Counted from the whole stretch's first letter, positions 9,234 to 62,682 are shown. The stretch: 62,682 nt of DNA, filler included, from Candidatus Fermentibacterota bacterium (GCA_016928395.1; 8 parts of 8 records of this genome joined end to end with filler, not necessarily neighbours in it), one strand, 5' to 3'. The notes: generated by a model from the letters alone, not told the origin. Numbers and translations are program-made.

Positions 9234-10409
9234 ATGAGAACCATCGTCACTATGCCCGGAGATGGAATCGGCAAGATCGTGCTGCCTGAAGGTCTGCGCG
9301 TGTTGCGGGCCGCAGGCTTCGAGGCAGACTATGTCCACGCGGACATCGGTTGGGAGTTCTGGTGCAAGGAGGGAAACCCCTTTCCCCAGCGCACCATCGA
9401 CCTTCTGGCTGAACACAAAATCGGCCTTTTCGGCGCCATCACGTCGAAGCCCAAGGATAAGGCGGAGACCGAGCTGGCGCCTGAGCTTCGGGGCAAGGGG
9501 CATGTCTATGCCAGCCCTATCGTGGGCATGCGGCAGAAGTTCGATCTTGACATCAGTATCAGGCCCTGCCAGTCGTTCGAAGGCAACCCGCTGAACTTCA
9601 TCAGGCGCCGGGGTGACGGTTTCATGGAGCCGAAAGTAGATGCGGTAATCTTCAGGCAGAACACCGAATGCCTCTACTGCGGCGTGGAGTGGACCAATCC
9701 TCCGGCGGAGGTCCGGCGTGCCCTGGAGACCCACAAGAAGATGAAGGCGTTCGCCCACGTGCCTGGCGAGGATCTGGCCATCTCGTGCCGCATCATGACC
9801 CGCGGCGCATGCCGCCGGATCTGCGAAGCCGCGTTCGCGTACGCCGCGAGGCATGGGTACAAGAGCGTCACGGTGTGCGAGAAGGCGAATGTCATTCGCG
9901 AGACATCCGGCCTCATGCGGGCGGAGGCCAGAGCCGTGGCGAAGAACTACCCGGATATCGCCGTATGGGACACCAATATAGATGCCCAGATGATGTGGTT
10001 GACGAAGAATCCGGAAGACTACGGCGTGATCGTATCCAGCAATATGTTCGGCGACATCGTGTCGGACGGGTTTGCCGGGCTCGTGGGCGGTTTAGGTTTC
10101 GCAGCAAGCGCGAATATCGGCCGCGATGTCGCGGTGTTTGAGCCGACCCATGGATCGGCGCCGAAATATGAGAAGCTTCAGCCGGCCATCGTCAACCCTA
10201 TCGCGATGATTCTCACGACCTGCATGCTGCTAGACTATCTGGGCGAGACCGACAAGGCCGCACGTATCAAGAACGCCGTGGCGGCGGTAGTCAAAGAGGG
10301 CACGGTCCGCACCTATGACATGCTCCGCCTCACCGGTGGGCCCGATGTCTTCTCCCACGGGGCCGCCACGACGACCCAGATGACGGATGCCGTCATCGCG
10401 CGCCTCTAG
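9234..10409 (+). CDS. Isocitrate/isopropylmalate dehydrogenase family protein
   Basis: Motifs PGDGIG, NMFGDIVSD, FEPTHGSAP and NPIAMIL; RBS AGGAGG. Confidence 0.92.
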   Translation: MRTIVTMPGDGIGKIVLPEGLRVLRAAGFEADYVHADIGWEFWCKEGNPFPQRTIDLLAEHKIGLFGAITSKPKDKAETELAPELRGKGHVYASPIVGMRQKFDLDISIRPCQSFEGNPLNFIRRRGDGFMEPKVDAVIFRQNTECLYCGVEWTNPPAEVRRALETHKKMKAFAHVPGEDLAISCRIMTRGACRRICEAAFAYAARHGYKSVTVCEKANVIRETSGLMRAEARAVAKNYPDIAVWDTNIDAQMMWLTKNPEDYGVIVSSNMFGDIVSDGFAGLVGGLGFAASANIGRDVAVFEPTHGSAPKYEKLQPAIVNPIAMILTTCMLLDYLGETDKAARIKNAVAAVVKEGTVRTYDMLRLTGGPDVFSHGAATTTQMTDAVIARL

Positions 10410-10462
10410 CGGCACGATGAACGCGGGGCGGGCTTCTGGGACCGCCCCTGGACTCTTTGGTG

Positions 10463-11086
10463 CTACGTCCCGAAGATCCGGTCACCCGCGTCGCCGAGGC
10501 CGGGCAGGATATAGCCGTGTTCGTTGAGCTGACGATCCAATGCGGCGGCATAGATGGGGACATCCGGATGCGCGCGAGTGAGCAGAGCAACACCCTCGGG
10601 AGCTGCTACAAGGCACAGGAATCGTATGGACGTGCCGCCCGATTCCTTGATGAGGCGAACCGCCTCCGCCACGCTGCCGCCGGTGGCCAGCATGGGGTCG
10701 ACCACGATGATCCAGCTCTCGGCCAGGCCATCGGGCAACTTCGCATAGTACACCACCGGCTGAAGCGACTCGTGATCGCGGTAGATGCCCACATGCCCGA
10801 CCCGCGCCCAGGGTACCAGTTCCAGCACGCCGTCCAGCATGCCGACTCCGGCGCGCAGGATCGGCACCAATACCAGTGGCACGCCGGGACGTACCCCGGT
10901 GGTCGTTTCCAGCGGCGTCTCGATTTGAGCCGGTATCACGGGAAAGTCCCTGGTGATTTCGTACACCATGAGCGCGGTGAGTTCTTTGAGCAGTCTGCGG
11001 AAGTCATGTTTCGGGGTGCGCTGGTCACGCAGGCTGGCAAGCTTGCTCTGGATCAGGGGATGATCGAGCACGAGGAGCCTATCCAT
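10463..11086 (-). CDS. upp: Uracil phosphoribosyltransferase
   Basis: Motifs [23 protein letters not shown] and [16 protein letters not shown]. Confidence 0.97.
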
Positions 11087-37337: not shown

Positions 37338-37566
37338 NNNNNNNNNNNNNNNNNNNNNNNNNNNNNNNNNNNNNNNNNNNNTTAATTAATTAANNNNNNN
37401 NNNNNNNNNNNNNNNNNNNNNNNNNNNNNNNNNNNNNGACTGCCGTCACCGGCTGCCAACCCGCCGCGCAAAACCATGGGTGGGCCCATCCAGCCACAGC
37501 AAATGTGGGTTATTCAGCGGAATCACATGTCAAGGCCTGACCCTAGGCAGCTCCACTCGAGTTGTT

Positions 37567-38057
37567 GGACGATGTGCACAGCCACCCCCAGTGGCGTGTG
37601 TCCTGCCGACGGAATGAAGAGCCGCAGGCACCGATGTGTGAAAGACATCGATAAAAGGAACCTGCCGCTTTGTCTCCGTCAATGGTCGCGTTCGCGCCTT
37701 GGATCAGGCCGTCCTCGGATGCTGTTCCGCCGATCTTACGTTGGCCACTGGCGACAAGTCGGTTCAGGCATCGGTTCAGAAGTCGTCCGACTACCTAAGA
37801 CGGAACGGATGAGCGGGGCGTTGTGCTGCATGAATGCAGTCGGGATGGTTGGCAGTTTGGGAATGGCGGAGCGGGAGAGGCGAGATTGGACCACCCTGGC
37901 CACTATTCTCACCTGAGAATAGTGGGGGCCAGTGGGCTTGGAGCAGGCTGCACGCGGCCAGGCGTCCGCCAGTTGGCAGGTTCCTTGCTCCTTCACCGTG
38001 CGACTCTTCCATTCGCTCCACCTCGCCGATTATCCGGCGCGTTCCCTACGTTCCGAG
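37567..38057 (-). repeat. Copy of the multi-copy non-coding element (inverted, ends missing)
   Basis: Reverse complement aligns by eye to about 58441-58934, including the CACTATTCTCACCTGAGAATAGTG hairpin. Confidence 0.9.
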
Positions 38058-52607: not shown

Positions 52608-52799
52608 TTATCGCACGACCACCAGCCGGCGCTGCGTCTCCCTTGACGGTGTCTCCAGGCGAATCAGATAGGTGCCGTTCGGGAGAAGCGCGTGCGGGAG
52701 CGTCCACACCCGCGATCCGGCATCGATTCCTTCCCTGAGCAGCAGTCTTCCTCCGAGATCATACAGCCCGACCCTTCCCGGCTCCGGGAGTCGAAACAC
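52608..52799 (-). pseudogene. Orphan T9SS-type C-terminal sorting domain fragment
   Basis: LYDLGGRLL..LPNGTYLIRLE..RRLVVVR; its last 81 bp recur at 53837-53917. Confidence 0.7.
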
Positions 52800-53833: not shown

Positions 53834-53917
53834 CTATCGCACCACCACCAGCCGGCTCTGCATCTCCCTTGACGGTGTCTCCAGGCGAATCAGATAGGTG
53901 CCGTTCGGGAGAAGCGC
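53834..53917 (-). CDS. 3' end of a T9SS-CTD-bearing gene (rest lies beyond the gap)
   Basis: ALLPNGTYLIRLETPSREMQSRLVVVR-stop. Confidence 0.65.
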   Translation of the reverse strand, partial: ALLPNGTYLIRLETPSREMQSRLVVVR

Positions 53918-54109
53918 NNNNNNNNNNNNNNNNNNNNNNNNNNNNNNNNNNNNNNNNNNNNTTAATTAATTAANNNNNNNNNNNNNNNNNNNNNNNNNNN
54001 NNNNNNNNNNNNNNNNNCACTGCGCGGCAGCTCTCAGCTTTCTGCCATCAGCTCTCTGCCAGCCGACTGCCGCTTCGCTCGCAGGTGACAGGGGGCAGGA
54101 CGTTGGTAC

Positions 54110-54582
54110 CAGGTAGTGCATTGGGGGATTTGATGAGGTCGCGCTTCGGGGACGTGGAACGCGCCCGACAATCGGCGAGGTGGAGCGAATGGAAGAGTCG
54201 GAGGGTGATGCGCGAAGAGTCTTCAAACTGGCGGACTCCTGTCTGTGTGCAGCCTGCTTCACGCCCACTGTCCGTCACTATTCTCAGGATCGGCCGAAGA
54301 GCATGCGAGGACGGCCTGATCCAAGGCATGAACGCGACTGTTGACGGAGGCGAGGCGGCAGGTTCCTTCTGCCGATGTCTTTCACACATCCACATCGGTG
54401 CCTGCGGCTCTTTAGTCCGCCGGCAAGACACACGCCACAGGGGGTGGCTGTGCACGTCGTCCAGCAACAGGGGGCTCATCCTTTCGCAACCGCAGGCCAA
54501 GGTACGCCAAGCGATCGCTATTCCACGCCTGTTCCGTCTCTTCCCGTCGCCCATTCGCCAAGAATCCCAAATGCAATACCTG
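54110..54582 (+). mobile_element. Non-autonomous TIR element (MITE/REPIN-like), internally deleted copy
   Basis: Left end CAGGTAGTGCATTGGGGGATT and right end AATCCCAAATGCAATACCTG; body aligns to 58406-59058. Confidence 0.7.
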
Positions 54583-54603
54583 AGCCTACTGAGGCCTACC
54601 GAA

Positions 54604-54744
54604 CTGCAGGAGCCCATCCCCGACCCCGCTCGATTCCCCTGGAATGAGGTCTGGAAGGTTCAGCACTACTGGCTTCAGGTCGACGCGATGACGAAGCCGA
54701 TGCGGGTGCGCGAGGAGTCGTCCCCGTTCGGAGGAACGACATGA
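54604..54744 (+). pseudogene. 3' stub of a DUF3883-ending SNF2 helicase gene (copy 1)
   Basis: LQEPIPDPARFPWNEVWKVQHYWLQVDAMTKPM; no upstream gene; overlaps the next start (ATGA). Confidence 0.75.
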
Positions 54745-56432
54745 CGACCGAGCACTTGCACGGGCTTATCGAGGCTGGCGAGAGATCTGATGTGGAGTTC
54801 AAAGGGGAGGGAATCCGACCCCTCTCCGACAACGAGCTTGTGGAGGCGGTCGTGTGCCTCGCCAATCGTCATGGCAGCACGGCCGGGTGGGTGCGTGTGG
54901 GCGTGGAGGATGATGGCTCGATAACTGGTGCTCGCCCCAGGCATCACGATCGCACCGACCCGCTACGCGTTCAGGCGCTTCTTGCCAATCGAACGAGGCC
55001 ATCGCTCTCGGTCCGGGCCGAACTGGCCGTTCTCTCCGGCAAAGAAATCCTTGTCATCGAGGTGCCCGCGTCACGGACGCCTGTGGGAACGGCGGATGGC
55101 AAGTACCTGCGTCGCGCCATAGGCGGAGACGGCACGCCTGCCTGCCTACCGATGCACTTCCACGAGATGCAGGCCTTGCAGGCCGACCGAGGCCAGCTCG
55201 ACTACTCCGCCCTCATCCTGCCTGACGCGACATGGGATGACCTCGATCCCCTTGAGTTCGAGCGCTTCCGACGCTTCATCCGCGAAAGTCATGGGCGTGG
55301 TGATGATTCGCTCGTCGGACTTCCCGATCTGGAGCTTGCCAAAGCGTTGGGGGGAGTCCAGGCGAACCATGCGGTCTCCGCCATCCGCGTACTGGGCGTG
55401 CTGCTGTTCGGACGCGAGGAGGCGCTGTCCCGGCTGCTGCCTACCCACGAGGTCGCATTCCAGATGCTCTCCGGCCGTAGCGTAGAGGTCAACGACTTCT
55501 TCCGATGGCCGCTCCTGCGGGTCGTGGACGAGATCTTGGCCCGATTCCGGGCGCGCAACCGGGAAGAGGAAATGCTGGTCGGTATGCTTCGTATCGCTGT
55601 GCCCGACTACTCACCGGCGGCGTTCCGGGAAGGCGTGGCCAATGCCATCATCCACCGTGCCTACACGCGACTTGGGGCGGTGCACGTCCAGTGGCACGAC
55701 GACCATGTCGAGATCTCCAATCCTGGTGGTTTCCCCGAAGGAGTGCGACTCGACAATCTTCTTGTCACTCCGCCGCGGCCGCGCAATCCTCTCCTCGCTG
55801 ATGCCTTGAAGAGAGCTGGAGTCGTGGAGCGCACGGCGCGCGGCATCGACACGATCTTCTACGAGCAGCTTCGCAACGGCCGCCCAGCTCCCAGCTATGG
55901 GCGCAGCACGGAGAGTGACGTCGTGCTCGTGCTGCCGGGCGGCAAGGCGAACCTTGCCTTTGCTCGCCTCGTCGCTGAGGAGGGACAGGCGGACCGGCCA
56001 CTGTCGCTCGACGAACTGCTGCTTCTCAACCATCTCTGGCTTGAACGGCAACTGACCACGACCGAAGGGTCATTCATCATCCAGAAACCGGAGGCCGAGG
56101 TGCGGGGCCGGCTGCAAGGGCTCGTCGAGGCAGGTCTTGTCGAGGCGCGGGGGGAGCGCAAGGGTAGGGCGTGGCATCTCTCCGTAGCGACCTACCGCCG
56201 TCTGGGCGAGAAGGCCGCCTACGTCCGCCAGAGGGGATTCGAACCCCTCCAGCAAGAGCAAATGGTTCTGCAGTACGTGGGCACGCACGGGCGGATCACT
56301 CGTGCAGAGACCGCCGATCTCTGCAAGTTAGGTCCGCGGCAAGCCGGCCGCCTGCTGGCGAGGCTCGCCAGAGAAAAGAAACTGAGACTTCACGGAATGA
56401 GAAGGGGAGCGTGGTATGAGCCTTGGTCATAA
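54741..56432 (+). CDS. AlbA_2/Schlafen + HATPase_c_4 + wHTH protein (RecG C-terminal-like)
   Basis: GERSDVEFK..VVCLAN..GVEDDG; REGVANAIIHR, ISNPGGF, PRNPLLAD and RGIDTI; C-terminal HTHs. Confidence 0.88.
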   Translation: MTTEHLHGLIEAGERSDVEFKGEGIRPLSDNELVEAVVCLANRHGSTAGWVRVGVEDDGSITGARPRHHDRTDPLRVQALLANRTRPSLSVRAELAVLSGKEILVIEVPASRTPVGTADGKYLRRAIGGDGTPACLPMHFHEMQALQADRGQLDYSALILPDATWDDLDPLEFERFRRFIRESHGRGDDSLVGLPDLELAKALGGVQANHAVSAIRVLGVLLFGREEALSRLLPTHEVAFQMLSGRSVEVNDFFRWPLLRVVDEILARFRARNREEEMLVGMLRIAVPDYSPAAFREGVANAIIHRAYTRLGAVHVQWHDDHVEISNPGGFPEGVRLDNLLVTPPRPRNPLLADALKRAGVVERTARGIDTIFYEQLRNGRPAPSYGRSTESDVVLVLPGGKANLAFARLVAEEGQADRPLSLDELLLLNHLWLERQLTTTEGSFIIQKPEAEVRGRLQGLVEAGLVEARGERKGRAWHLSVATYRRLGEKAAYVRQRGFEPLQQEQMVLQYVGTHGRITRAETADLCKLGPRQAGRLLARLAREKKLRLHGMRRGAWYEPWS

Positions 56433-56650
56433 GTATAGCCGCGGTCATACATGTTATGACCGCGGTCATAATCTATGGCCGTGTGACATACTCCCTTGCC
56501 CTGAGACCACCAGGAATTCGGGCGGATCGGAGGTAAACCCCGGCCCATCAGCATCCTACTGGTCTAAGCCCGAATCGCTTCGAATGTGCCCGATTCCGGA
56601 CTGGGGTGGGAATGACGACAGAACCACTCACAGGGGTCTGCCCAACCCGA

Positions 56651-56932
56651 GAGCTACGGCTCATCGAGGTCAAGGGGTTAGCGGCAGTTTCGGGAACGGT
56701 CCTGCTGACGCCCAACGAACGCCGTGTGGCCGAGGATCGACGCGATTGCTACTGGCTCTACATCGTGACAGACTGCGGCTCGCAGCCCGTGCTCCAGGAG
56801 CCCATCCCCGACCCCGCTCGATTCCCGTGGAACGAGGTCTCGAAGGTTCAGCACTACTGGCTTCAGGTTGATGCGATGACCAAGCCAATGCAGGTGCGCG
56901 AAGGCGGGGAGCTGTTCGGAGTGGTGGGGTGA
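56651..56932 (+). pseudogene. 3' stub of a DUF3883-ending SNF2 helicase gene (copy 2)
   Basis: ELRLIEVKG..LTPNE..YWLYIVTDC is a PD-(D/E)xK-type DUF3883 core, followed by the same tail as copy 1. Confidence 0.8.
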
Positions 56933-57732
56933 GAAGATCCGTCGGATCAGACGGATCGGTCCGATCCCATCGGCTCCGCCCTTCAGGCGGTTATCGTGAC
57001 AGCGCGAGTTTCCAGACGACGACGCTCATCTACGACGCCACCTACTGGTTTTGCGAGAAGTTCCTCGATTCGCGCTCGCGCACGGTGGACCAAATGGTGC
57101 AGGCTGCGCGGTCCGGCCGCCAGAACATCGCTGAAGGCAGCCGAGCCGCAGCCACCTCGTCGCAGACCGAGTTGCGACTGCTCAACGTGGCCCGCTCCAG
57201 CCGGGAGGAGCTGCTCCTCGACTTCGAGGACCACCTGCGGCATCGTCATCTCCCGCAATGGGCCCCGGGGGCCTCCGAGGCTATGGCTGTCCGCGAGGTG
57301 CCCCACAGGTTCAAGAAGGATCTGTCCGATCCGTCGAATCTGACCGATCTGACCGATCAGCAGCGCTGGACGCTCTACCAGCCATGGCTTGAACACGCCG
57401 ACCCGGCAGTGCGCGCAAACGCGATCATCTGCCTCATCCACCAAGCGAACTTCCTGCTCGACCAGCAAATCGCCGCAGTGGAGAGGCAGTTCGTCGAGGA
57501 AGGCGGCTACAGCGAGCAACTCGCCGCCGCCCGCCTTGCCGAGCGGGAGAAGCGGAGGAGGGGCGATCGGTCGGATCAGTCCAATCAGTCGGACCCGGCT
57601 GATCAAATTCCCCCCTGCCCCCAATGCGGCAAGCCAATGGTCCTGCGCACTGCCAAGAGCGGCAAGAGCGCAGGCCGCCAGTTCTGGGGATGTTCCGCCT
57701 ACCCCGACTGCAAAGGAGTTGTGGACCTGTGA
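56929..57732 (+). CDS. Four-helix-bundle suffix domain protein with C-terminal topoisomerase C4 zinc finger
   Basis: [51 protein letters not shown]. Confidence 0.9.
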
Positions 57733-57754
57733 AAGCCATCGCGATGGTGCGCAA

Positions 57755-58030
57755 ATGATCCCACGGGACTGCAAGCGGCTGGCGGAGGTGGATTTTCCGA
57801 TCGCCGTGGTGTCGAAGCATGCGGCGAGGGAGAAGTCGATACGGCATGGGCATCCGAGCACGCTGCACCTGTGGTGGGCGAGACGTCCTCTGGCATCGTG
57901 TCGGGCCATGCTGATGGCGTTGTTGCTGCCCGACCCACGCGATCCGCTCTGCCCGGAGGAGTTCAAAACCAAGGCGAGGAACTTACTGCCACGCGTTCAA
58001 GGGAGGCCAGGGCCGACCGAAGCGGGCTAG
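57755..58030 (+). pseudogene. 5' stub of a DUF1156 adenine methylase gene
   Basis: [37 protein letters not shown], then a stop after 91 aa; full proteins are about ten times longer. Confidence 0.85.
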
Positions 58031-58045
58031 GGACGTAGGTAAAAT

Positions 58046-58214
58046 GTCAACTTGCGGGGAGCCACGGGCGCCGATTCCGAGGTTGCCGAACGAGAATCTG
58101 CGCTGAGGAGCGGGCACGTGGCCGCTGCGCGGCAGCTCTCAGCTTTCTGCTATCAGCTCTCTGCCAACCGACTGCCGCTTCGCTCGCAGGTGACAGGGGG
58201 CAGGACGTTGGTAC
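58046..58214 (+). repeat. Leader module of the repeat unit; copies at 54018-54109, 58315-58405 and 62456-62597
   Basis: GCGCCGATTCCGA..GCCGAACGAGAATCTGCGCTG..GCTGCGCGG, then (GCTCTCA/GCTTTCT)n; in three copies it continues CGACTGCCGCTTCGCTCGCAGGTGACAGGGGGCAGGACGTT. Confidence 0.88.
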
Positions 58215-58405
58215 NNNNNNNNNNNNNNNNNNNNNNNNNNNNNNNNNNNNNNNNNNNNTTAATTAATTAANNNNNNNNNNNNNNNNNNNNNNNNNNNNNN
58301 NNNNNNNNNNNNNNCACTGCGCGGCAGCTCTCAGCTTTCTGCCATCAGCTCTCTGCCAGCCGACTGCCGCTTCGCTCGCAGGTGACAGGGGGCAGGACGT
58401 TAATA

Positions 58406-59058
58406 CCAGGTAGTGCATTGGGGGATTTGATGGGGTCGCGCTTCGGGCACGCAGGGAACGCGCCGGATAATCGGCGAGATGGAGCGAATGGAAGAGTCGT
58501 ACGGTGAAGGAGCAAGGAACCTTCCACCTGGCAGACTCCTGTCTGCGTGCAGCCTCCTTCAAGCCCACTGGCCGCCACTATTCTCAGGTGAGAATAGTGG
58601 CCAGGGTGATCCAATCTCGCCTCCCTCGCTCCGCCATTCCCAAACTGCAGACGATTCCCGGTTCCATTCATGCAGCACAACGCCCCCCTCATCCGTTCCG
58701 TATTGTGTAGTCGGGCGACTTCTGGCCCGGCGCCTGAACCGACTTGTCGCCAGTGGACAACGGAGGATCGGCGGAAGAGCAGGCGAGGACGGCCTGATCC
58801 AAGGAGCGAACGCGACTGTTGACGGAGGCGAAGCGGCAGGTTCCTTCTGCCGATGTCGTTCACACATCGGTGCCTGCGGCTCTTTAGTCCGCCGGGAGGC
58901 CACACGCCACTGGGGGTGGCTGTGCATATCGTCCGAGAGAATGGGATTCAACATCCTGTGCCTGCGCACTCAGGCTTGCGCACCAATGCTCTTGCCTTCC
59001 GCGCTCGGCTCAGCCATTTCGCCTTCTGTTCCTGCAAGTCCCCCAATCCAATACCTGG
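58406..59058 (+). mobile_element. Non-autonomous TIR element (MITE/REPIN-like), longest copy, 653 bp
   Basis: 23-bp TIR CCAGGTAGTGCATTGGGGGATTT / AAGTCCCCCAATCCAATACCTGG (3 mismatches); internal 12-bp hairpin GCCACTATTCTC-AGGT-GAGAATAGTGGC; no credible ORF. Confidence 0.72.
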
Positions 59059-59077
59059 AATTGGCACCCGCCACCTC

Positions 59078-59290
<213 letters not shown>

Positions 59291-59299
59291 GAGGCAGCC

Positions 59300-60406
59300 A
59301 TGATCAAGCTCGGACACATCACCGTGCGTGGGTTCAAGTCGATCCGCGATCTTGCCCGGTTCGAGGTCAGAAACCTAAACGTTCTCATCGGGGCCAACGG
59401 CGCGGGGAAATCAAACTTCCTCTCCCTGTTCAAGCTGCTGAACTGGATGGGGCGGACCCCGGGTGAACTCCAGCTCCACGTCGGCATGGAAGGAGGGGCA
59501 AGCTCGCTCTTGCACGATGGACCAGCCATGACCCCTGCGATCGAGGTGGAGATGGTGCTTGTCGGGCAGAAAGTCACCTACGAGCACCGCTTCCGGCTAG
59601 CTCACGCCGCGGAGGACACGCTGGTATTCGCCGAGGAGCAGATACGGCTCCAGAGGCTCACTTCGAAGAAGTCGGAACCGTGGGGTTCTCTCGGGAGTGG
59701 GCATCGGGAGACGAGGCTGCTGGAAGCCGCAGAGAACCAGAATCTCGTGGCCCGTGCCCTTCACAATCAGCTCCGCGACCTGGTCGTCTACCAGTTCCAC
59801 AACACGTCGCAAACCGCCCGGGTCCGCCAGCGGTGGAACGTTGACGACAACCATGCACTCAAGGAGGATGCGGCCAATCTGGCGCCGATCCTGCGACGGC
59901 TTCGCGAAGACGAGCCTCACTGCTATCGGCAAATCACCGAGACGCTCCGGGCCATCGCGCCGTTCTTCGCTGACTTCGTTCTGGAGCCACAGAACGGGAC
60001 CATGTTGCTACAGTGGCGCGAGGTAGGGAGCGACGTGGTGTTCGGCCCCCACCAGTCGTCAGACGGCTCGCTCAGGGCCATGGCCCTCATCACCCTGCTC
60101 CTGCTACCGGAAGGACTCCTGCCTTCGGTGATCATCTTAGACGAACCCGAACTCGGGCTACACCCGTCGGCCGTTGAGGTGGTGGGCGGTTTGATCCGTA
60201 ACCTGTCACGCCACCGGCAGGTCATCATCGCCACGCAATCCGCAGCCTTCGTGAATCAGTTCGAGCCTGCTGACATCGTGGTTGTGGAGCGCAAGGGCCG
60301 GGAGTCGGTATTCACGCAACTCGACGAAGAAGCACTGCGGGAGTGGCTGACAGATTACTCGCTGGCCGAGCTGTGGGAGAAGAACGTCATCGGTGGGACG
60401 CCCTAG
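59300..60406 (+). CDS. AAA_21 / ABC-type ATPase
   Basis: GFKSI, Walker [10 protein letters not shown], signature SDGSLR, Walker B/D-loop [10 protein letters not shown] and IATQS. Confidence 0.92.
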
Positions 60407-60408
60407 CC

Positions 60409-61095
60409 ATGATACGACTGCACCTGGTTGTTGAGGGATGGACCGAGCAGCGGTTCGTGAAGCAGGTCCTTGCTCCCCACCTCGCGAGCCATGGGGTTGC
60501 TGCCACCGCGCGTTGCGTTGAGACGAGTCGAGATCGCTACCGGATCTACCGGGGCGGAATGATCTCCTACACCAACATACGAAACGATCTCAGACGGTGG
60601 ATGAAGCAGGAGCCTGGGCCCGACGTACGCTTCAGCACAATGATCGATCTGTATCGATTGCCCGATGGCTTCGCAGAGTTCCCCGTAGCGAAGAAGATCC
60701 CCGATCCACGTCAACAGGTGATGGCGCTGGAGACGGCGTTCGCGGCAGATGTCAGCGATCCCCGCTTTGTGCCATATATCCAGCTTCATGAGTTCGAGGC
60801 CCTGGTACTCGTTGATCCTCAACGGCTGTCTGCTCATTTCCCCAACGCCGACAAGGCAACTCAGCGGCTATCTCAACTCGGCCAGTCAGTCGAGACACCG
60901 GAGTTGATCGACGACAAGCATCCGCCGTCGAAGCGCATCATCGAGGAGCTACCGGAATACGAAGGTCGGAAGGCGGTTGTAGGGCCGCTCATTGCAGCGG
61001 AGATCGGGATAGAGGCTTTGAGGGTCAGGTGCCCCCACTTCGCGCAGTGGCTCGGGCGGCTGGAGGCTCTTGGAACAGCAGTCGGGAGGAGCTAG
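60409..61095 (+). CDS. DUF4276 (TOPRIM-like) protein
   Basis: LVVEGWTEQRFV, TMIDLY, YIQLHEFEAL, PSKRI and CPHFAQWL. Confidence 0.88.
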   Translation: MIRLHLVVEGWTEQRFVKQVLAPHLASHGVAATARCVETSRDRYRIYRGGMISYTNIRNDLRRWMKQEPGPDVRFSTMIDLYRLPDGFAEFPVAKKIPDPRQQVMALETAFAADVSDPRFVPYIQLHEFEALVLVDPQRLSAHFPNADKATQRLSQLGQSVETPELIDDKHPPSKRIIEELPEYEGRKAVVGPLIAAEIGIEALRVRCPHFAQWLGRLEALGTAVGRS

Positions 61096-61097
61096 CG

Positions 61098-61250
61098 ATG
61101 GCGGCCAAGGAGAAGGGCTCCACGCGCAAGGGGCAGAGTAAGGTTCGATTCGATGACCGACTGGTTCTCAACCAGTGGATGCTGTCGCTATTCGAAGTGA
61201 AGGAGTTCGAGCATCTCGCCGAGCCTCTCAAGGGACGGCTGGTGGGGTCA
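61098..61250 (+). pseudogene. 5' stub of a type III restriction (Res) gene, cut by the TIR element
   Basis: RBS GGAGGAG; FDDRLVLNQWMLSLFEVKEFEHLAEPLK resembles Res N-termini; the frame runs into the element TIR. Confidence 0.65.
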
Positions 61251-61251
61251 G

Positions 61252-61541
61252 AGGTATTGCATTTGGGGATTTGATGGGGTCGTGCTTCGGGCACGTTGGG
61301 GAAGCGCCGGATAGTCGGCGAGGTGGAGCGAATGGAAGAGTCGGAGGGTGATGCGCGAAGAGTCTTCAAACTGGCGGACTCCTGTCTGCGTGCAGCCTGC
61401 TCCAAGCCCACTGGCCGCCACTATTCTCAGGTGAGAATAGTGGCCAGGGTCATCCGATCTCGCCTCTCCCGCTCCGCCATTGCCAAACTGAGAACCACTC
61501 CCAACTGCATCCATGCAGCACAACGCCTCGCTCATCCGTTC
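61252..61541 (+). mobile_element. Left half of the TIR element
   Basis: AGGTATTGCATTTGGGGATTT end plus body, including the central hairpin; truncated near 61541. Confidence 0.75.
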
Positions 61542-61982
61542 TTGATGGGTAGTATGATGGAGTTCAGCTGGCTTCGTTGATCGAGTTGCCGTCGAAGGCA
61601 CCAGTGCCTCGCCGAAGCCCATAGGAGCACAGCCCGAACGACAGCCCGAACTTCAGTATTGACTACGATGACCTTCTTCGCTGTTTCGTTTCCCAACAGC
61701 ACTTCGACACGGGCTGGCGTGAACTGGCGCACGTCTACTCTAAAGGAGGCCTACTGATGCTCCCTGGATATGGGGCTTCACCTCGTGCTCCTGCAGTCTC
61801 AGCGCAATGGGGTATTCCCTCTTCCCATCAGTATCTCGGGCTCCGTCCGCCCTGCGGCCGCCTGAGCGGACCCCGCATCGGATTCAGAACTGCCACAGGT
61901 CAAGCCCTGTGACCCGAGGCAACTCCCTTCTTGCTGGCTGTACCGCGCAGAACGCACCACATCCGCACCCAGAGGAGGCACA

Positions 61983-62450
61983 ATGCTCTTGATACTCTTC
62001 GGGCCGAGTTGCTCAGGGAAGTCATCCGTGGCGAGAATCATTGCCGAACGTACCGGCGCTTCAGTCTGGACAGGGAATGACTACCTGCGCCTCGCCAAGA
62101 CCGAGCCGGAGGCCTGGAAACGTTTCGAAGCGCTGCTGGAACGAGCCGCCAGCGCTGGGCCCCTCGGCCCTGGCTCGGTGATCTTCGCTTATGCCGGGCC
62201 CCTGCCCGAGGCGCGGTCTCTCCCCACGGGCCCCGAGGTTCGGCGTCTTCGGTTCATCGCGAGCCAGGAGGTGCTTCGGTCACGGTTTAGTCCACGCGTC
62301 GGCGGGCGGGTAACACCAGCGATTTCGTCCATGCTGGCCCGTGTTGCCGAACAAGCTGCCTTACTGCCGGCTGATGCTGAATACGACACCAGCACACGTT
62401 GCGCGGAGGATGTCGCAACTGAGATCATGCGGGCGGTCCACGCACGATAG
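61983..62450 (+). CDS. Small P-loop kinase-like (AAA_17/AAA_33) protein
   Basis: GPSCSGKS Walker A; RBS GAGGAGG; YDTS near the C-terminus. Confidence 0.75.
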   Translation: MLLILFGPSCSGKSSVARIIAERTGASVWTGNDYLRLAKTEPEAWKRFEALLERAASAGPLGPGSVIFAYAGPLPEARSLPTGPEVRRLRFIASQEVLRSRFSPRVGGRVTPAISSMLARVAEQAALLPADAEYDTSTRCAEDVATEIMRAVHAR

Positions 62451-62597
62451 CACACTGCCAACGTGCGAGGAACCGCAGGCGCCGATTCCGAAGGTGCCGA
62501 ACGAGAATCTGCGCTGCGGAAGTGGAACGTAGCCGCTGCGCGGGAGCTCTCAGCTCTCAGCTTTCAGCTTTCAGCTTTCTGCTCTCAGCTCTCTGCC

Positions 62598-62647
62598 GGT
62601 CAAGTCAGAACATGGGTAACGTTTCAGGTTCAGAACATAGGTAACAC
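62598..62647. mobile_element. IS481-like terminal repeat remnant
   Basis: TCAGAACAT(G/A)GGTAAC occurs twice, 25 bp apart, resembling the iterated transposase-binding sites of IS481-family ends; no transposase is visible before the window ends. Confidence 0.5.
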
Positions 62648-62682
62648 TTCGTCATTGCGCGGATGGCGATGGACTGGGACGA

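Follow-up and report, generated by a model that had tools for sequence, protein, structure and literature searches.

Why should intact accessory defence genes lie between short remnants of core genes, and why should members of one repeat family lie where these remnants end? The question is raised by the last two contigs of a 62,682-base stretch of DNA from a Candidatus Fermentibacterota bacterium (GCA_016928395.1), hereafter the window, in which 8 contigs are joined by 7 identical linkers (N44-TTAATTAATTAA-N44). The initial annotation viewed positions 54018-62600 as an array of cargo cassettes, collected from several donors either by an integron-like capture system or as a silent library. Our analysis points to an ordinary explanation, to which we assign slightly better than an even chance: a repeat resembling a miniature inverted-repeat transposable element (MITE) was inserted into, or recombined at, core genes beside two slots for embedded genes, and the assembly broke at the repeats. 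On this view, the blocks derive from no fewer than three defence loci, two of the Hma type and one type III-like mod-res pair.

The blocks are located on two separate contigs of about 4.2-4.4 kb each, contig 7 (54018-58214, 4197 nt) and contig 8 (58315 to at least 62682), and the protein database places the stub protein of the window on a 4197-nt contig, matching contig 7. Both ends of contig 7 and the start of contig 8 are within a repeat. The boundaries are as follows.

53918-54017, no strand: artificial linker between contigs 6 and 7, not biological
54018-54110, plus strand: start of contig 7, inside the S1 part of the repeat module S0S1 (CAGCTYT-rich heptamers), 98% identical to 58125-58214 and 58317-58406
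58215-58314, no strand: artificial linker between contigs 7 and 8
58315-58407, plus strand: start of contig 8, inside S1

Because contigs 7 and 8 were assembled separately and the 58214/58315 junction is a linker, the adjacency and the order of the blocks are artificial and come from the order of the file. The ordered array is thus an artefact of linker-joined contigs, and the case serves as a warning against reading such contigs of a metagenome-assembled genome (MAG) as a single locus.

The content of the blocks fared better than their arrangement. Profile searches reproduced every domain call in all three blocks, in which intact cargo is bracketed by stubs of core genes. On contig 7, the following features are present.

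54604-54744, plus strand: helicase tail stub 1, the last 46 codons of a SNF2/DUF3883 helicase, 84% identical to residues 1098-1142 of P0002
54741-56432, plus strand: intact AlbA_2 + HATPase_c_4 gene, 563 aa (cargo 1), by profile search
56439-56465, plus strand: 11-bp perfect hairpin just 3' of the stop codon of the AlbA gene, read from the sequence
56645-56932, plus strand: helicase tail stub 2, the last 95 codons (open reading frame (ORF) called from 56606), 94.7% identical to residues 1049-1143 of P0002
56929-57732, plus strand: intact gene for a four-helix bundle, 4helix_suffix and a Top1-type Zn-ribbon, 267 aa (cargo 2), by profile search
57755-58030, plus strand: DUF1156/HmaB head stub, 91 codons, with homology to about residue 85-89

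The reference protein P0002 is a helicase of 1143 aa from a public assembly, and the parent helicases are about 1145 aa long. In profile searches, the ORF at 56606-56932 covers only positions 39-88 of 91 in NOV_C/DUF3883, and the DUF1156 head covers positions 8-65 of 967 in HmaB and 2-61 of 73 in DUF1156. Where a complete Hma system would have a full helicase, a DUF1156 methylase and DUF499, contig 7 thus carries just the final 46 and 95 codons of helicases and the first 91 codons of HmaB. The AlbA gene and helicase stub 2 are separated by 212 nt of unique sequence that opens with the 11-bp hairpin.

The two helicase stubs are 82% identical over 141 nt and have an identical run of 32 nt in common. 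Of the codon changes between them in their conserved 37 codons, 8 are synonymous and 2 non-synonymous. This ratio implies that the stubs are remnants of two distinct, functional genes shaped by selection, rather than duplicated scrap, in line with the proposal that several donors contributed to these blocks.

Contig 8 carries the type III-like block and an additional ORF.

59060-59290, plus strand: type III Mod tail stub, about 75 codons, matching MTase_III positions 977-1054 of 1057 (E 5.7e-5)
59300-60406, plus strand: intact HEC-01A (ABC-type ATPase, AAA_21), 429.3 bits, profile positions 5-362 of 363
60409-61095, plus strand: intact HEC-01B (DUF4276, TOPRIM-like), 228.2 bits, profile positions 12-227 of 230, DUF4276 positions 1-192 of 192
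61098-61251, plus strand: type III Res head stub, with homology to about codon 44-47
61983-62450, plus strand: P-loop, kinase-like ORF, 155 aa, with weak family matches only

The adjacent full-length HEC-01A and HEC-01B genes identify the cargo as HEC-01. Of a complete type III restriction-modification (R-M) system, the block retains only the above part of the Mod profile and Res residues 5-47 of 1056: the Res head (61098-61229) aligns with P0001, a protein of 1056 aa that scores 779 bits on the PADLOC REase_III model, over residues 19-47 at 79% identity in BLASTP and over residues 5-47 in tblastn. The junctions between stubs and cargo are as tight as originally described. On contig 7, stub 1 and the AlbA gene overlap in ATGA at 54741, with the ATG of the gene on the stop codon of the stub, stub 2 and the four-helix-bundle gene overlap in GTGA at 56929, and 22 nt separate the latter gene from the DUF1156 head; on contig 8, the gaps are 9 nt (Mod tail to HEC-01A), 2 nt (HEC-01A to HEC-01B) and 2 nt (HEC-01B to Res head).

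The repeats associated with these blocks fall into an inverted-repeat element and the S0S1 module.

37561-38054, minus strand: element copy F on contig 4, without inverted ends, directly downstream of a Phd/ParE pair
54111-54581, plus strand: element copy A, 471 nt, both 17-nt ends present, without about 176 nt that are present in copy C
58408-59056, plus strand: element copy C, 649 nt, the most complete, both 17-nt ends present
61252-61541, plus strand: element copy D, consisting of the left 290 nt and lacking the right end
58031-58214, plus strand: S0S1 copy B, reaching the end of contig 7
62456-62597, plus strand: S0S1 copy E, 83% identical to copy B
62598-62682, plus strand: start of another, deeper repeat, the first 85 nt of a 1330-nt Logan contig with a depth of 202, compared to about 13 for unique sequence

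The 17-nt motif of the inverted ends, AGGTAKTGCATTKGGGG, occurs 5 times against an expectation of 0.31, and at least 5 occurrences were seen in 0 of 100 shuffles. The element copies are 86-93% identical to each other, A and C have the same orientation, the gap of about 176 nt in copy A begins in the loop of an internal 13-bp palindrome, and the ends of copy C pair (folding z -2.85). None of the 6 ORFs in the element, including the 189-aa ORF of copy A, has a Pfam match, and Rfam yields no family at the gathering score in the window, nor, with E up to 1, in 54018-62682. The element is a new family, and its description as a multi-copy, non-coding element with terminal inverted repeats was borne out. 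A scan for promoters found 0 promoter-like sites, and 3 terminator-like sites were detected compared to 5.0 expected in shuffles. The S0S1 module, about 180 nt long and including the CAGCTYT heptamer run, precedes element copies A and C and also follows the DUF1156 head and the P-loop ORF. Directly after the heptamer run of S0S1 copy E, the second, more abundant repeat starts. On contig 4, copy F lies within about 50 nt of the Phd/ParE pair (38621-38106, minus strand).

MITEs are short, non-coding and multi-copy, and have terminal inverted repeats, and pairs of MITE copies flank short gene segments. The element has the inverted termini on copies A and C, is 471-649 nt long, and is represented by 4 copies in the window. 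It differs from a typical MITE in that it has no known parent insertion sequence (IS), is accompanied on the left by S0S1 and includes several truncated copies; furthermore, inspection of the sequence revealed no direct repeat shared by the flanks of copies A and C that would represent a target-site duplication.

At four of the five outer stub ends, a repeat follows or precedes at a distance of 0-22 nt: 22 nt separate the right end of copy A from the start of stub 1, about 6-20 nt separate the right end of copy C from the Mod tail, the Res homology stops some 22 nt short of the left end of copy D, and the DUF1156 homology stops about 17-20 nt short of S0S1, which the stop codon of the ORF touches. 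The claim that outer ends stop close to the repeat stands for these four ends with an amendment, namely that 58030 adjoins S0S1 (58031-58214) and not the inverted-repeat element. The start of stub 2, to which we return below, is at no repeat. All 4 repeat-abutted junctions fit the polarity of insertion, with the 5' part of a gene adjoining the left side of a repeat (DUF1156 head next to S0S1, Res head next to the left inverted end) and the 3' part adjoining the right side (right inverted end next to the helicase tail and next to the Mod tail).

Given this arrangement, insertion of the repeat into the core genes, or recombination between repeat copies, may have removed or separated the remaining parts of the genes, and short-read metagenome assembly would then have broken inside the repeat. 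Such a break would leave only contigs of about 4 kb that hold the contents of a slot together with its stubs. Contigs 7 and 8 start inside S1, and the sequence upstream of these starts could hold the 5' parts that the helicase and Mod genes lack here. The lack of target-site duplications at copies A and C fits an exchange of flanks between copies and, combined with the unrelated sequence found on the far side of copy D from the Res head, suggests that some loss or rearrangement is likely too.

Finished sequence provides a direct precedent for this ordinary explanation. Plasmid pMC64A of Aeromonas media (NZ_CP047963.1) carries, in this order, a SNF2 helicase, HEC-01A/B, the head and middle of a type III methyltransferase (MTase), IS66 and IS256, the MTase tail, and Res. 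The MTase tail consists of the last ~75 residues (profile positions 492-566 of 575) and directly precedes Res. As in the window, a HEC-01 pair occurs together with a short methylase tail, which in pMC64A is parted from the methylase head by mobile elements. In pMC64A, however, the interruption is by coding IS66 and IS256 and both halves of the gene are on one molecule, whereas the repeat in the window is non-coding and the other halves of the genes were not seen. By analogy, a short-read assembly of pMC64A would yield contigs with a stub beside a repeat, similar to those of the window.

Several observations weigh against the insertion explanation. Helicase stub 2 begins (56645) away from any repeat, after the 212 nt of unique sequence, and copy D links the Res head to unrelated sequence instead of the remainder of Res. 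No further pieces of the helicase, DUF1156 or Res were found elsewhere in the 62.7-kb window by tblastn with full-length relatives, and 934-aa ORFs taken as DUF499 by size and position and used as tblastn queries had no match in the window. Moreover, the five stubs are all shorter than 100 codons (46, 95, ~90, ~75 and ~47), compared to about 970-1145 codons in the parents; breakpoints spread uniformly would place all five no more than 100 codons from the slot with a probability on the order of 1e-5, uncorrected for ascertainment. Plain random insertion does not explain these short stubs. In addition, the repeats are co-oriented with the neighbouring genes in 4 of 4 independent contigs (4, 7, 8 and the metagenome contig L003, described below), which would be mildly unexpected under random insertion.

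The slots themselves are better understood from relatives. A helicase search over 401 Myxococcota genomes, in which the best 2 candidates per genome were considered, led to 8 orthologous helicase-DUF1156 loci that were fetched. In 4 of these 8 loci the DUF1156 gene abuts the helicase, and the other 4 contain an insert of 1.4-1.5 kb, AlbA_2/HATPase-like in G026 and a HEC-04-like ATPase in G328, G309 and G332. An extra helicase-tail stub is present in 0 of the 8, indicating that stubs are not a normal feature of the slot. According to a 2024 preprint, embedded genes are found in 62.7% of 1,485 Hma systems (10.1101/2024.01.29.577857), and together these data uphold the view of the helicase-DUF1156 gap as a variable slot. 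The same text names HEC-01, the representative of which gave no protection against the phages tested, and states that systems with pseudogenes were excluded from the survey (10.1101/2024.01.29.577857). Full-text literature searches recovered no report of stub-flanked cargo.

As in Hma systems with embedded genes, the cargo in contig 7 lies between a SNF2/DUF3883 helicase and a DUF1156 methylase, and the AlbA_2/HATPase gene has its counterpart in G026; unlike these systems, the window keeps only 46-95 codons of the core genes and has no DUF499 gene. Compared to Hma-embedded HEC-01, the pair in contig 8 is found between type III Mod and Res stubs and not in an Hma locus. An intact mod-res pair with hits to the same PADLOC models as the stubs (MTase_III PDLC03646, REase_III PDLC03654) is present on plasmid pHsw1 of Hymenobacter swuensis (NZ_CP007144.1), where a Mod of 1113 aa and a Res of 1104 aa are separated by a gap of 268 nt. 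The Mod tail of the window is 57.5% identical to the last 73 residues of this Mod, and the Res head is 39.5% identical to the first 45 residues of this Res. Unlike in the window, the pHsw1 genes are full-length and there is no cargo in the gap.

Some side observations on these relatives are worth recording. In 4 of the 8 loci (G328, G309, G135 and G074; L044, L045, L047 and L049), two full-length tandem DUF1156 genes, about 2.9 kb apart, are located downstream of the helicase. In the Myxococcales MAG G001 (L042, contig C62), positions 9682-10890 encode a HEC-01A-like ATPase, 24% identical to that of the window, between the DUF1156 gene and a 934-aa ORF. Judging by its position, the latter ORF is probably DUF499, such that a second slot in this Hma operon may also hold cargo. 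Database relatives of the helicase tail include 972 tail-only ORFs (59-189 aa), many of which cluster at 128-129 aa, and 3391 longer ones. Most of the tail-only ORFs are on short contigs and may be partial genes at contig edges; a small number come from contigs of 0.3-4.3 Mb. The source names of the 120 longer relatives listed point to Firmicutes, Chloroflexota, Bipolaricaulota, Acidobacteria, Bacteroidota and Poribacteria.

The main competitor of the insertion explanation, to which we give a small but appreciable chance, is that two repeat copies flanking a slot act as a composite transposon that carries the cargo together with the stubs, so that such units accumulate. MITE pairs that mobilise integrons are described. 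This scenario accounts for the short stubs, given that small composites would move more easily, as well as for the co-orientation of repeats and cargo in all four contigs, and for the fact that a single repeat family bounds unrelated cargo (the Hma slot, the type III slot, the kinase-like gene and ParE/Phd pairs). However, neither target-site duplications nor a transposase with matching ends came to light, copy D is devoid of its right end and copy F of both ends, and the outer flanks of the putative units are beyond the contig ends.

The ParE/Phd association extends outside the window. A metagenome contig from the Joint Genome Institute (L003) begins at the same base as S0S1 copy B, to which it is 95.6% identical over 90 nt, and continues with the left 107 nt of the element, a ParE/Phd pair and a fragment of an IS110-type transposase, the latter named from a reading of the ORF with no family search. 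Exact-pattern scans for the element yielded 1 locus in public metagenome contigs (on a 2-kb contig), 0 in viral contigs, and 2 loci in public genome contigs that shared only the 50-nt similarity to a group II intron. Within the element, this intron-like part is 58456-58512 (…GCGCCGGATAATCGGCGAG…GAAGAGTCGTACGGTGAAGGAG), and positions 7852-7905 of L002 are alike. These 50-58 nt are similar to the start of a group II intron (RF02005) that is present in 13 copies in G001, one of which (C62:76061-76227) is about 1.8 kb from the Hma helicase gene of that genome (70909-74304). The identification of the element as a group II intron was rejected because only some 50-58 nt resemble the 5' end of the intron and L003 scores 16.2 bits compared to the gathering threshold of 49; moreover, the Rfam models for group II introns (domains I-IV and V-VI) gave no match at E up to 1 in 54018-62682.

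A different concern, that the blocks reflect chimeric assembly or binning, with paths that cross between ~90%-identical repeat copies and create some combinations present in no single genome, appears improbable. We placed on contig 8 independent k=31 Logan contigs of run X1, the probable source run with 93% of the sampled words. A 2117-nt Logan contig matches 59224-61340 with 0 differences, running from the last part of the Mod tail through HEC-01A/B and the Res head to 89 nt into copy D, and a 1085-nt contig matches 61431-62515, also with 0 differences, spanning the end of the copy D homology, the P-loop ORF and S0. The Res head/copy D junction is thus bridged, and the stub ends are real because they lie in unique sequence, where chimerism within a repeat cannot truncate a gene. 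Nevertheless, the k=31 contigs break inside the repeat, among the Logan contigs listed no piece bridges the repeat interior at 61340-61431, coverage of 58899-59044 is thin (depth 4.07), and the contig ends overlap other repeat copies at 98% and not at 100%. The check for chimeric junctions on contig 8 therefore came out in favour of the stub-repeat junction but left the interior of the repeat unbridged, and the linkage of repeat copies to their neighbours is only partly verified.

In run X1, the depth is 12.7-13.3 for unique sequence and about 120-130 for repeat segments, the latter an upper guide summed over the contigs placed; the roughly 10-fold excess fits about ten copies of the repeat. 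From runs X2 and X3, only repeat pieces or the heptamer-rich stretch were matched. Contig 6 ends in a similar manner: its stretches 52609-52691 and 53835-53917, 83 nt each, are 96% identical and the second one reaches the end of the contig, so that the end at 53917 is another repeat-induced assembly break. These 83-nt repeats presumably encode the C-terminal part of a secretion-sorting domain of the type IX secretion system (T9SS).

The more ambitious proposal, that the repeat-bounded units form a cassette store from which the repeat excises or mobilises slot contents, with arms of 45-95 codons for exchange into intact Hma or type III loci, strikes us as distinctly improbable. The short stubs, the co-orientation and the origin of the helicase stubs from two genes nonetheless keep the ideas of mobilised cassettes and homology arms alive.

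Still lower, at the level of the highly improbable, we place a silent library in which the stubs serve as homology arms, so that cargo could be swapped into some other, complete Hma or type III locus of the genome. The stubs have properties that would suit this role: the helicase C-terminus (about 90 residues) is 71-95% identical in amino acid sequence across the 120 longer relatives listed, the run of 32 identical nt is common to both helicase stubs, and the full-length helicase P0002, so similar to stub 2, exists in a public assembly. The main text of the preprint, in which the words 'recombination', 'exchange' and 'acquisition' are absent, does not discuss an exchange of embedded cargo in these terms (10.1101/2024.01.29.577857). 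On the other hand, the window contains no intact recipient locus and none is known from this organism, the identity between the stubs is only 82% over the 141 nt, the arms would be only 135-290 nt long, and nothing ties the repeats to such swapping.

The last proposal, an integron-like array formed by site-specific capture, with the repeat as an attC-like site and the recombinase encoded elsewhere, has in our judgement an almost negligible chance, even though cargo alternates with the repeat in a single orientation and the element combines inverted ends with a variable middle. The S0S1 copies B and E fold no better than shuffled sequences (z +0.61 and +0.29; matched or bettered by 140 and 124 of 200 shuffles, respectively), and are for this reason not attC-like. 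The attC sites are about 57-141 nt long; the repeat units, at 180-650 nt, exceed this size and are unlike repetitive extragenic palindromic (REP) sequences as well. Furthermore, the cassettes hold fragments of neighbouring genes, the array itself is not in evidence, and no integrase, recombinase or HUH domain was detected in the ORFs scanned on contigs 7 and 8, nor a recombinase domain in the 10 large ORFs of contigs 1-5. The suggestion of integron-like or REP/HUH-type capture is hence not sustained, and the present data do not demonstrate a dedicated capture machine.

The search for new defence systems now makes use of accessory genes embedded in Hma, BREX, DISARM and R-M loci. If we see here only repeat insertions through a fragmented assembly, which is the explanation that we favour, the blocks represent ordinary erosion of defence loci. 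The regularity of the short stubs is the one feature worth following up. If the stub-cargo-stub units are mobile or recombinogenic, they would offer a testable route for the exchange of embedded genes, and a cassette store, if it exists, would provide a mechanism for the movement of embedded defence genes.

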